A model generated the notes under the pieces. That model was given only the letters and a program-made list of their open reading frames with translations, did not search any database and was not told the DNA's origin. Positions 33,709 to 35,983 of a stretch of 64,000 bases of DNA are shown here, piece by piece. The stretch's first letter is position 1. Each line of letters starts with the position of its first letter. The position numbers and the translations under genes are program-made. Source of the stretch: Bacteriovoracaceae bacterium (GTDB lineage Bacteria > Bdellovibrionota > Bacteriovoracia > Bacteriovoracales > Bacteriovoracaceae); NCBI GenBank assembly GCA_018649885.1, contig JABIHA010000084.1, positions 1 through 64,000 on the forward strand, given 5' to 3'.

Positions 33709-34998
33709 TTGAAAATATCTAAGCTCTGTATTGCGGTCTTTAGTCTTTTATTTCTCTACTCTTGTAGCTCTGATAAAGAGAGCACTCCTGGTGAGGATCA
33801 AGCTCCAACTTCACCTGTTCCCACTGAGGAGGTTGCCTCACCCATGATTACTGCTGGAGCTAGTGAAGAAAGTAGTGCAAGCAATGAATCCTATAGCGAT
33901 TGTGCAGTAGATGTTCATCAGCACCTTTCAAATGGTGTCAATTTCTCTGTAGGTTCAGCTACTCTTTTAGAAGTGATGTCTTCAACTTCTGATAAGTCAG
34001 TTTTAGTAAATGGGCATAAAGGGCTCTCAAAAGTTATTTTAATGCCGCCACCAGAAACGGGAGATGGTTCGGGCCTTGGTGCAAATTATCAAATTGATAC
34101 AAATATGCATCCTAGTCTAGTTCAAGCTGTAGCGGATAATTCAGATAAGTATTTCTTGGCCGCTGGTGGGGCTGCTTTAAATCCAATTATTCACAAGGCC
34201 CATATTGATAGAAGCGCCGGTGATGCGACTGCCTTTCGTGCAGAAGTAAAAAGGTTAGTGGCACTTGGAATAAAATCTATTGGTGAGATGGCCGTACTGC
34301 ATTTATCCATTACTGGTACCCATCCTTATATTGTGGCGCCAGCTTTTCATCCCCTTTACCGAGTGCTGGTTGAAGAAGCTGCCATTGCAGGAATCCCAGT
34401 TGATATCCACCTTGAGGCCATCGATACCAAGAAACACTACAGCCTAAAGATTCCGGAGGATATGCCCAAGAATAGTGAAGGGGTATCTTGTTTTAAGACT
34501 GTTGATGGAGTGGGCGCGGATAGAGGGTTAAACCCATCTGAGATAAAGTCCAATATCATGGCCTTTGTTAAGCTATTAAAATACGCCAAGGACTATGCCT
34601 GTAATACAGTTGGTGACTGCTCAAAATCAAAGATTGTTTGGAGCCATGTGGGATGGGATAACACCAGTGATCTGAATACCACTGTTGTTGGTGATCTAAT
34701 GGGGAACAATTCCAATTTGTACGCGGCCTTAAAGATGCTCAATAGTCCTGGAAATTGCCAAAGTATTGAAAATAGACCACTAGATGCCTCTGGAAATCTT
34801 CAGGCACACTGGAAGAGCCTATTTGAAAAATTCCCAGATCGTTTTGTTATTGGCTCAGATGAGTTCTTTGGGGAGAGCGCAGATCTCACAATTGGCTCTG
34901 CCAGCACCCAGGGAAGCTGGGATCTCATAGAAAAACTTCCAAACGAGCTGAAAAAGGCCTTCGCCTGCGATAATCCTCGCCGGATCTATAATCTATAG
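33709..34998 (+). CDS. Amidohydrolase-family lipoprotein
   Basis: Lipobox LYSC; DVHQH, IGE, DIHLE, WSH, IGSD. Confidence 0.8.
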   Translation: MKISKLCIAVFSLLFLYSCSSDKESTPGEDQAPTSPVPTEEVASPMITAGASEESSASNESYSDCAVDVHQHLSNGVNFSVGSATLLEVMSSTSDKSVLVNGHKGLSKVILMPPPETGDGSGLGANYQIDTNMHPSLVQAVADNSDKYFLAAGGAALNPIIHKAHIDRSAGDATAFRAEVKRLVALGIKSIGEMAVLHLSITGTHPYIVAPAFHPLYRVLVEEAAIAGIPVDIHLEAIDTKKHYSLKIPEDMPKNSEGVSCFKTVDGVGADRGLNPSEIKSNIMAFVKLLKYAKDYACNTVGDCSKSKIVWSHVGWDNTSDLNTTVVGDLMGNNSNLYAALKMLNSPGNCQSIENRPLDASGNLQAHWKSLFEKFPDRFVIGSDEFFGESADLTIGSASTQGSWDLIEKLPNELKKAFACDNPRRIYNL

Positions 34999-35094
34999 CA
35001 TTTTGAACCAGATCATTTTGGCCCCAGGGGCCATAATAGAATACTAAAACAATAAGATTTATTGAGTTTTCAGTGGCTTAGCTGTGCCAAGTTT

Positions 35095-35110
35095 TGGCCT
35101 GGGGCTTGCT
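35095..35110 (+). promoter_or_regulatory. sigma54 -24/-12 promoter
   Basis: TGGCCTGGGGCTTGCT with GG at 35096-97 and GC at 35108-09, canonical spacing. Confidence 0.65.
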
Positions 35111-35120
35111 TTATAGAGAG

Positions 35121-35321
35121 CATCCGGGTTGAAGACGACTAATTAAATAAGTCGCCTGGTCCAAGATAATTGAAAGATTGTCCATCACACACACCTACCT
35201 TCTTCAACCCATTACCCGAGAGCAAGCGAATGTAAGCTCTCTCCCAACAGATCTACTACCCCACCTTTAGGACAAATACTTTTAACCCCGGACCAGGCCA
35301 CACTTATTTGTGTGACCTTTT
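35121..35321 (+). ncRNA. Candidate structured small RNA of unknown family
   Basis: No ORF. Hairpin cgact/agtcg; long stem cctggtcc/ggaccagg plus ttgaaag/cttttaa and ttgtcc/ggacaa; inner gagagc/gctctc hairpin; terminal cacac/gtgtg hairpin plus TTTT. Confidence 0.55.
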
Positions 35322-35423
35322 ACTGATCCCAGTTTGAATTTCAAGTGGCGTATTCCTCATCGGAGTGTGCTACACGCCTTCTTCGTCATCCACCACTTGA
35401 AATCCAAACTGGAATCAGTAAAA
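35318..35423. repeat. 31-bp inverted repeat (2 mismatches) with 44-nt spacer
   Basis: ttttactgatcccagtttgaatttcaagtgg (35318-35348) and ccacttgaaatccaaactggaatcagtaaaa (35393-35423). Confidence 0.9.
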
Positions 35424-35536
35424 CTGCCATAGCTCATGTTTTAGAATGACTAATTTTTCCTTACTCTCTTTTAACTTTCGCTCCAGTCAGATCGCTCTAT
35501 AATATAAAGCGGTAAACTTATATATTAGGAGCTGAA

Positions 35537-35983
35537 ATGAAAGCTGAAGACTTCATGACAAAAAATGTTATTTCATGCAACGAAAATAGTACTGTAAAAC
35601 AAGCAGCTGAAATTATGCTAGAGCATGGTGTTGGCGGCCTACCCATTGTTAACGATGCTGGAGATTTGGTAGGAATTCTTACTGAGTCAGATTTTGTGGG
35701 AAAGAAAGTTGATATTCCCCATGCGCTTGTCTCTATGAAACAGCTCTTTGGTGAAACCTTTTTCCATGGAAGCGTTGATGATATTTTTGCCAAGGCCAAA
35801 GATTATAAACTCCATGATGTTATGACTAAAAACCCAATCACCGTTGCACCGGACGCTAGCCTAACTGAGGTCAGTACTCAAATGCTTGAGAGAAAAATCA
35901 ATAGATTGCCGGTGGAAAAAGATGGAAAGCTTATTGGCTTTATCACTAGAAAAGATCTTTTACGGGCATTTATAAAACTCTAG
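35537..35983 (+). CDS. CBS domain pair protein
   Basis: MTKNVIS, GLPIV, LVGILTESD, RLPV, GFITRKD. Confidence 0.93.
   Translation: MKAEDFMTKNVISCNENSTVKQAAEIMLEHGVGGLPIVNDAGDLVGILTESDFVGKKVDIPHALVSMKQLFGETFFHGSVDDIFAKAKDYKLHDVMTKNPITVAPDASLTEVSTQMLERKINRLPVEKDGKLIGFITRKDLLRAFIKL

Follow-up and report, generated by a model that had tools for sequence, protein, structure and literature searches.

A structured RNA family preceded by a sigma54-type promoter and without an Rfam counterpart in the Bacteriovoracaceae

Does a long gap between two coding sequences of a Bacteriovoracaceae bacterium hold a gene for a small RNA, and of what kind? The window (the whole stretch of 64,000 nucleotides that was analysed) contains an ORF-free gap of 538 bp at 34999-35536, as an earlier note had stated, flanked by an amidohydrolase ORF and a CBS-domain ORF. 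The same note predicted a -24/-12 promoter with a start near 35121, about 415 nt before the next coding sequence. Both boxes are there (TGGC at 35095-35098 and TTGC at 35106-35109, which we take to be sigma54-type from their consensus) and place the predicted +1 at approximately 35121, which leaves 416 nt to the CBS start. A search of 34900-35600 turned up no sigma70-type site. Among 67 aligned copies, the -24 TGGC reached a weighted frequency of 1.0 at all four positions and the G and C of the -12 box 1.0 and 0.98 respectively; the covariance search model included the promoter. The features of the locus are collected in Table 1. The MITE-like element, absent from the earlier note, begins right after the U-run; its copies include the window's, a related family with other ends exists, and no longer parent element sharing its ends was seen in the genome. 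A terminator-like hairpin (35365-35377) lies inside this repeated element and a TATAAT (approximately 35499-35504) upstream of the CBS gene, which suggests that this gene may have its own promoter.

Table 1. Predicted features of the locus (window positions).
Feature	Position	Strand	Basis
Two upstream half-palindrome sites (GG-rich N5 palindrome), predicted activator sites	35009..35043	.	motif from homolog upstream regions
Sigma54 -24/-12 promoter	35094..35111	+	box conservation across 67 aligned copies
Predicted small RNA	35121..35321	+	fold, homolog family, strand test; ends predicted
5' leader strand of pseudoknot (or folding-intermediate) helix	35126..35135	+	pairs with 35201-35210; covariation
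5' hairpin	35137..35153	+	fold; lineage-specific, missing in many homologs
Closing and inner stems, 5' strand	35154..35183	+	partner 35270-35298; covariation
Left G-free arm	35184..35217	+	holds seed-like motif 35194-35201 and pseudoknot partner 35201-35210
Apical hairpin, GAAU tetraloop 35228-35231	35218..35241	+	loop conserved, closing pair covaries
Right G-poor arm	35242..35269	+	holds second motif 35260-35267
Inner and closing stems, 3' strand	35270..35298	+	fold, covariation
Terminator-like hairpin and U4, specific to window copy	35299..35321	+	hairpin 35299-35314, U4 35318-35321
100-bp TA-flanked inverted-repeat element (MITE-like), separate from the RNA	35321..35420	.	17 full-length copies

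The fold of 35115-35325 has a free energy of -48.8 kcal/mol (z=-3.5), a stability that none of 200 shuffles matched. It contains all of the elements described from the letters alone, namely the hairpins, the interrupted stem, the inner hairpin and the terminal hairpin followed by U4. The arms were said to be almost G-free and to carry anti-SD-like motifs, and this is borne out: one contains no G in its 33 nt and the other a single G in its 28 nt, and the left motif CCUACCUU and the right motif CCCACCUU are both unpaired in the folding ensemble of the window copy (p=0.8-0.99). The perfect complement between 35126-35135 and 35201-35210, proposed to give a pseudoknot or an alternative fold, is exact over 10 nt; taken alone it is within chance, some perfect 10-nt inverted match appearing in 15.5% of 2000 shuffles, and it is covariation among homologs that supports the predicted helix. 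The RNA is approximately 200 nt long in the window copy, has a family median of approximately 161 nt as aligned, and measures approximately 120 nt in its minimal form. In most homologs a U-rich run directly follows the closing stem (47 of 67 rows have four or more U there).

A second copy is present in the window's genome (G000:C25:28330-28539, 74% identity), with its own sigma54 box and compensatory changes. BLASTN against 40 relatives gave only short matches, none of the 9 inspected being the RNA, and covariance models were therefore needed. The two-sequence model retrieved a handful of homologs and the 15-sequence model many more. The 67-sequence model matched 101 of the 151 Bacteriovoracaceae genomes at E<=1e-4, spanning 54 of 69 genera, and 82 of the 151 at E<1e-8; some matches weaker than E<1e-8 are promoter-only, and at least three loci (L179, L183 and L185) are not the RNA. 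The 67 alignment rows (mean pairwise identity 51%) come from 64 genomes; several close relatives of included genomes were left out, two of the 67 loci supplied were below threshold, and about six poorly aligned bottom rows were retained in all counts. Within the family, this model did not find the RNA in genera g19, g20, g21 and g41 and found it, with a modest score, in only one genome of g52. Ten syntenic regions of 15-16 kb from genomes without a model match did not yield it either. Outside the family, 8 of 127 genomes of the phylum gave weak, promoter-driven matches (27-39 bits) at 9 loci, and the core of the RNA did not appear in the alignments of 8 and the folds of 7 of these. A first pattern gave 0 matches in viral contigs; the 2 matches to a second pattern (16-18 bits) were discarded as chance matches to promoter plus leader. 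At L202:1501-1687, L203:1501-1650, L208:1501-1646 and L212:1501-1652, which belong to other families of the phylum, a sigma54 box precedes long hairpins whose loops are rich in C; these possibly represent separate or distantly related sRNAs.

Conserved and covarying homologs, a test that the earlier note had itself named, were found. In the 67-row alignment all 26 tested pairs show double changes, and 84% of the cells in these pairs are paired, compared to 67% in shuffled and at most 51% in slid controls; 0 of 500 shuffles reached any of the measures. Because the closing stem and the apical hairpin guided the fitting of the alignment, their counts lean favourable (in the closing stem, 12 of 12 modelled pairs have double changes and 90% of cells are paired). 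Three results are independent of this bias. The pseudoknot helix, absent from the model, has double changes in 9 of 9 pairs (equalled by 1 of 500 shuffles), and its pair 47:134 surfaced unprompted by mutual information (z=9.0). In a plain MAFFT alignment of 15 copies, the two top-ranking helices were the closing stem and the leader helix. Finally, a model-free alignment of 11 minimal-form copies recovered the same rod, with double changes in 20 of 25 pairs. On a neighbour-joining tree, the closing stem, apical hairpin and pseudoknot helix had 58, 30 and 11 compensatory branches (null means 1.4, 2.2 and 1.3) and 58, 39 and 43 pair-breaking branches, respectively; most of the pseudoknot helix core does not vary, and a single pair accounts for 7 of the helix's 11 compensatory branches. 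As aligned, the three predicted helices, including the GAAU-capped hairpin, all show compensatory changes. Moreover, GU/UG combinations outnumber AC/CA in paired columns (79 vs. 37), which favours the plus strand. The locus is very probably a real non-coding RNA gene.

Neither the window stretch nor any of 16 homolog loci had an Rfam match close to a gathering score. Together with the covarying homologs, this supports the earlier description of the locus as an undescribed structured RNA with a sigma54-type promoter; the RNA in the window belongs, as one of several copies, to a structured RNA family that is conserved and has no Rfam counterpart. In the literature searched (large motif-discovery supplements aside) there was no Bacteriovoracaceae small RNA and no description of this one. 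SRP RNA, RNase P RNA and tmRNA, from which the locus had already been set apart, were rejected because the genome's own copies of all three lie elsewhere. Y RNA/YrlA was also rejected, with no Rfam match and with PF05731 (Ro60/TROVE) not found in the window's genome (92% complete).

All forms share the promoter, the closing stem and two G-poor arms (5.7% G on average over the 67 rows) and usually the GAAU loop, which is present in 53 of 60 ungapped rows and has a covarying closing pair. The predicted fold thus consists of a closing stem, a large two-armed G-free loop and the GAAU hairpin, and long forms add a leader that would pair with the left arm. The minimal form lacks the leader helix, and the core is therefore the rod with its two G-free arms. 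In variant forms (L051, L057, L180 and L169; genera g63 and g84) the 5' leader pairs with the extreme 3' end and a side hairpin is added. The motif YAYCU occurs in the left arm of 41 of 67 rows (17 in shuffles) and in the right arm of 43 of 67 (17.5 in shuffles); a clean motif is missing in about a third of the rows. Aligned against AGGUG, the motif columns that face G vary mainly between C and U (column 124, C39/U20/A5; column 281, U42/C18/A3; column 285, U41/C19/A2; column 286, C57/U7), the pattern that wobble pairing, if it takes place, predicts. The right-motif column facing the A of AGGUG is U in 56 of 67 rows, while the left-motif U column is noisy (U41/C14/A11). The motif A is changed to G in 0 of 67 rows in both motifs, though wobble would allow G.

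The genomic setting bears on whether the RNA acts on a neighbouring gene. The RNA and a gene for a 207-aa orphan protein (L010:2043-2666, on G000:C25) occur together in 81 genomes and on the same contig in 71; the RNA is downstream of the orphan gene in 70 of these 71, at most 20 kb away in 69 and convergent with it in 66. The C25 copy occupies this syntenic, ancestral site, which makes the window copy a relocated duplicate, and the two copies have different neighbours. Duplicates also exist, in tandem or nearby, in G045, G047, G145 and G124. The earlier note had offered a switch as one possibility. As a cis-regulator this is not supported: the downstream neighbour of the RNA is not conserved, and in 66 of the 69 syntenic cases the marker gene converges on the RNA. 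A cis-acting role is unlikely given the convergent synteny and the duplicates at other sites, and a riboswitch or cis leader was rejected for want of a conserved co-oriented downstream gene. An Rrf2 (IscR-like) gene or a cysteine-desulfurase-like gene (the latter label assigned by eye) was upstream in four loci inspected early. The orphan gene is present in 137 of the 151 family genomes and its named relatives are labelled Bacteriovorax, family Bacteriovoracaceae. Its product had no usable family match in Pfam, NCBIfam, PDB sequences or Atlas; it is predicted to adopt a stand-alone RecA/SF2-like fold (pLDDT 80, Z approximately 10; structure matches with rmsd 3.5-4.4 over approximately 150 residues), a predicted fold that says nothing on function.

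Upstream regions complete the conserved unit, which, as read from the aligned copies, comprises putative activator palindromes, the sigma54 box and the structured RNA. The palindrome occurs at -130..-30 in 58 of 65 copies compared to 6.3 in shuffles, the motif having been trained on those same upstream sequences, and a site is present in 12% of random genome windows. Of 23 inspected family loci outside the training set, 18 carry the palindrome too. In the window copy it scores 10.6 bits (35009-35025) and 9.3 bits (35027-35043). Presumed IHF-like sites cluster 30-50 bp upstream (25 minus-strand matches over the 67 rows). The conserved palindrome points to one shared sigma54 activator, as yet a predicted one. 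Six enhancer-binding proteins were identified by motif in the window's genome, and no activator gene adjoining the RNA was seen at the inspected loci. The idea of PilR as the activator gained no support, the sole pilin gene found by motif having neither a sigma54 box nor the palindrome within 330 bp upstream. Across this genome, many strong sigma54 boxes precede genes for secreted or lipoprotein-like products (N-termini, judged by eye).

How might the RNA act? The reading that we put forward, tentatively and at close to but short of an even chance, is a stand-alone, trans-acting, Hfq-independent and sigma54-induced sRNA with two seeds directed at ribosome-binding sites of the AGGUG type. One sigma54 enhancer-binding protein would switch the RNA on, and its stems would hold the two arms permanently open. 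The two redundant YAYCU seeds would then need neither Hfq nor ProQ to pair with these sites on many mRNAs, whose translation would be blocked; the timing, a predatory-cycle switch or a stress response, is a guess. The seed model is favoured because of the C/U variation facing G, because AGGUG and AGGUA are enriched at start sites of the window's genome (125 vs. 48 and 154 vs. 59 in control positions, respectively), and because neither Hfq (PF17209) nor ProQ was found in this one genome, which is 92% complete. The arms also carry an unpaired conserved motif complementary to ribosome-binding sites. Against the seed model, none of 4351 genes of one genome stood out in a target scan, and two candidates failed: among relatives, AGGUR was present at 1 of 30 PilZ genes and 4 of 30 FHA-GGDEF genes, compared to a background of 8.8%. 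Nor was any gene class enriched in AGGUR (sigma54 genes, p=0.12; FliA genes, p=0.17; signal-peptide genes, p=0.79). Many of the 30 PilZ-gene upstream regions (L218-L247) carry a CCGATAA box, presumably FliA-like.

The arms may serve a protein and not mRNAs. The motifs and the GAAU loop could be a fixed-geometry platform that titrates a pyrimidine-binding protein, a decoy or scaffold role that is the main rival reading, though rather unlikely. The sigma54-driven sponges CrcZ/CrcY are a precedent, and candidate partners are proteins of the cold-shock, RRM or KH type (the genome encodes 3 cold-shock and 3 RRM proteins) or, speculatively, the tightly linked orphan with its predicted RecA/SF2-like fold, although that orphan also occurs in genera where the RNA was not found. 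The left motif begins 30-32 nt before the GAAU loop in 29 of the 39 rows bearing it, and the right motif 28-34 nt after the loop in 32 of 34. This spacing is partly circular, as the rows were chosen by an indel-penalising model and the search windows were bounded. Fixed spacing and an invariant loop on a covarying stem fit a protein partner at least as well as they fit seeds, and the duplicated copies and the failure to find a conserved target for the two tested candidates also agree with titration. On the other side, the RNA has two motif copies only, whereas known sponges carry many, and CsrA is present (over cut-off in 57 of 61 genomes), yet the arms are about 6% G. A CsrB/RsmY-type sponge was rejected, since multiple single-strand GGA motifs are absent from arms so poor in G. 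An unlikely extension of protein binding is that the sigma54-gated rod, by showing two anti-SD-like elements and the GAAU loop at fixed distances, might capture a dedicated protein or machine and so switch between hunting and growth post-transcriptionally; candidates for the captured partner are some form of RNA polymerase, a translation factor and the linked orphan with its RecA-like fold.

A divergent 6S RNA had been left possible by the earlier note. We consider it improbable that this is a second 6S/Ms1-like RNA, whose rod and bubble would mimic an open promoter and bind RNA polymerase, be it the core enzyme or the sigma54 or sigma28 holoenzyme. The rod, the central bubble and the pairing of 5' and 3' ends are indeed shared with 6S (RF00013) and Ms1, and the RNA is family-wide, usually single-copy and strongly syntenic, as a housekeeping RNA would be. 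Nevertheless, the genome's canonical 6S lies at C73 (47.7 bits), RF00013 matched neither the window stretch (E<=10) nor any of 16 homolog loci (E<=1), the promoter is sigma54-type, and the RNA was not found in several genera. The bubble is larger (strands of approximately 25-34 nt) and the apical arm shorter (approximately 9 bp) than in what we take to be the proportions of 6S. In favour of the 6S-like reading, a truncated 6S with short arms is reported to cycle in vitro all the same (PMC8876501).

More improbable still is a conformational switch acting in trans, in which refolding between leader helix and rod, or processing, would gate seed exposure. In the window copy the two folds are at most 2 kcal/mol apart (-48.2 vs. 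-46.2), the leader helix prevails in growing prefixes until 165 nt and the rod once 180 nt is reached, and both helices covary; but both motifs are unpaired in either fold, and minimal forms have no leader helix. That the locus is no functional RNA, being a DNA-level feature, a convergent-gene terminator or a short coding sequence, is highly improbable: the RNA is often within 150 bp of the end of a convergent gene, but promoter, palindromes and three covarying helices move together, including to new sites and into tandem duplicates, the wobble asymmetry favours the plus strand, and the longest closed ORF per row ranges from 0 to 42 codons, with none in 9 of 67 rows.

A family-wide RNA of this kind would give access, through one small locus that can be deleted, to the post-transcriptional control of predatory bacteria that appear to be without Hfq and ProQ. 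Its activator sites point to one enhancer-binding protein, and the unusual fold exists in two natural versions, with and without the pseudoknot, which are swappable built-in controls.

Several known systems resemble the RNA in part. The sponge CrcZ is sigma54-driven and has C/A-rich single strands, and both CrcZ/CrcY and CsrB/RsmY have paralogs. The present RNA shares with CrcZ/CrcY a sigma54-type promoter, C/A-rich single strands and paralogous copies, and differs from CrcZ/CsrB in having two motif copies only, arms without GGA repeats and a genome in which Hfq was not found. APsRNA5 of B. bacteriovorus (176 nt; PMC3627812) is of similar size and shows a few motif-like resemblances by eye; it was rejected as a homolog, scoring with neither of two models, and in the strains inspected it differs by having a FliA-like box and, preceded by an SD, a short ORF. 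For the sRNAs of Bdellovibrio, homologs are reported to be lacking beyond B. bacteriovorus itself (PMC3627812). The APsRNA5-like region of B. bacteriovorus strains (L189:5980-6110, minus strand; L188:5910-6045, plus strand), with its presumed FliA-like box, SD and short ORF of fewer than 30 codons, could be the mRNA of a small protein and not an sRNA. CJnc230, a precedent for the seed model as NfeR1 is, depends on RpoN and contains a predicted anti-SD segment (PMC11187230). The Pxr sRNA of myxobacteria, named earlier as a precedent, holds as such for the promoter type and not for the structure. Pxr has a predicted sigma54 promoter with an upstream enhancer region, an Hfq-less host, a clade-restricted distribution and three consecutive stem-loops beside the activator gene pxrR (PMC5684412). 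The present RNA shares the sigma54-type promoter with upstream enhancer region, a host without detected Hfq and the restriction to a clade, but its predicted fold is a bubble-bearing rod, with a pseudoknot in some forms, and it has no Rfam match. NfeR1/alpha-r14 of rhizobia is Hfq-independent and approximately 120 nt long; it has three hairpins whose loops display CCUCCUCCC, variable stems that keep these redundant, C-rich, anti-SD-like motifs single-stranded, and no sigma54 signature (PMC10746234). Length (approximately 120 nt, here in the minimal form), redundant anti-SD-like motifs kept unpaired by variable stems and, putatively for the present RNA, independence of Hfq are common to both; the CCUCCUCCC hairpin-loop motifs were not found in the present RNA, where a sigma54 box is present and the two motifs, YAYCU, lie in the two arms of a single large internal loop. 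Judged from its predicted features, it is a new RNA family of a known kind, that of putative sigma54-type trans-acting sRNAs, with an unusual fold.
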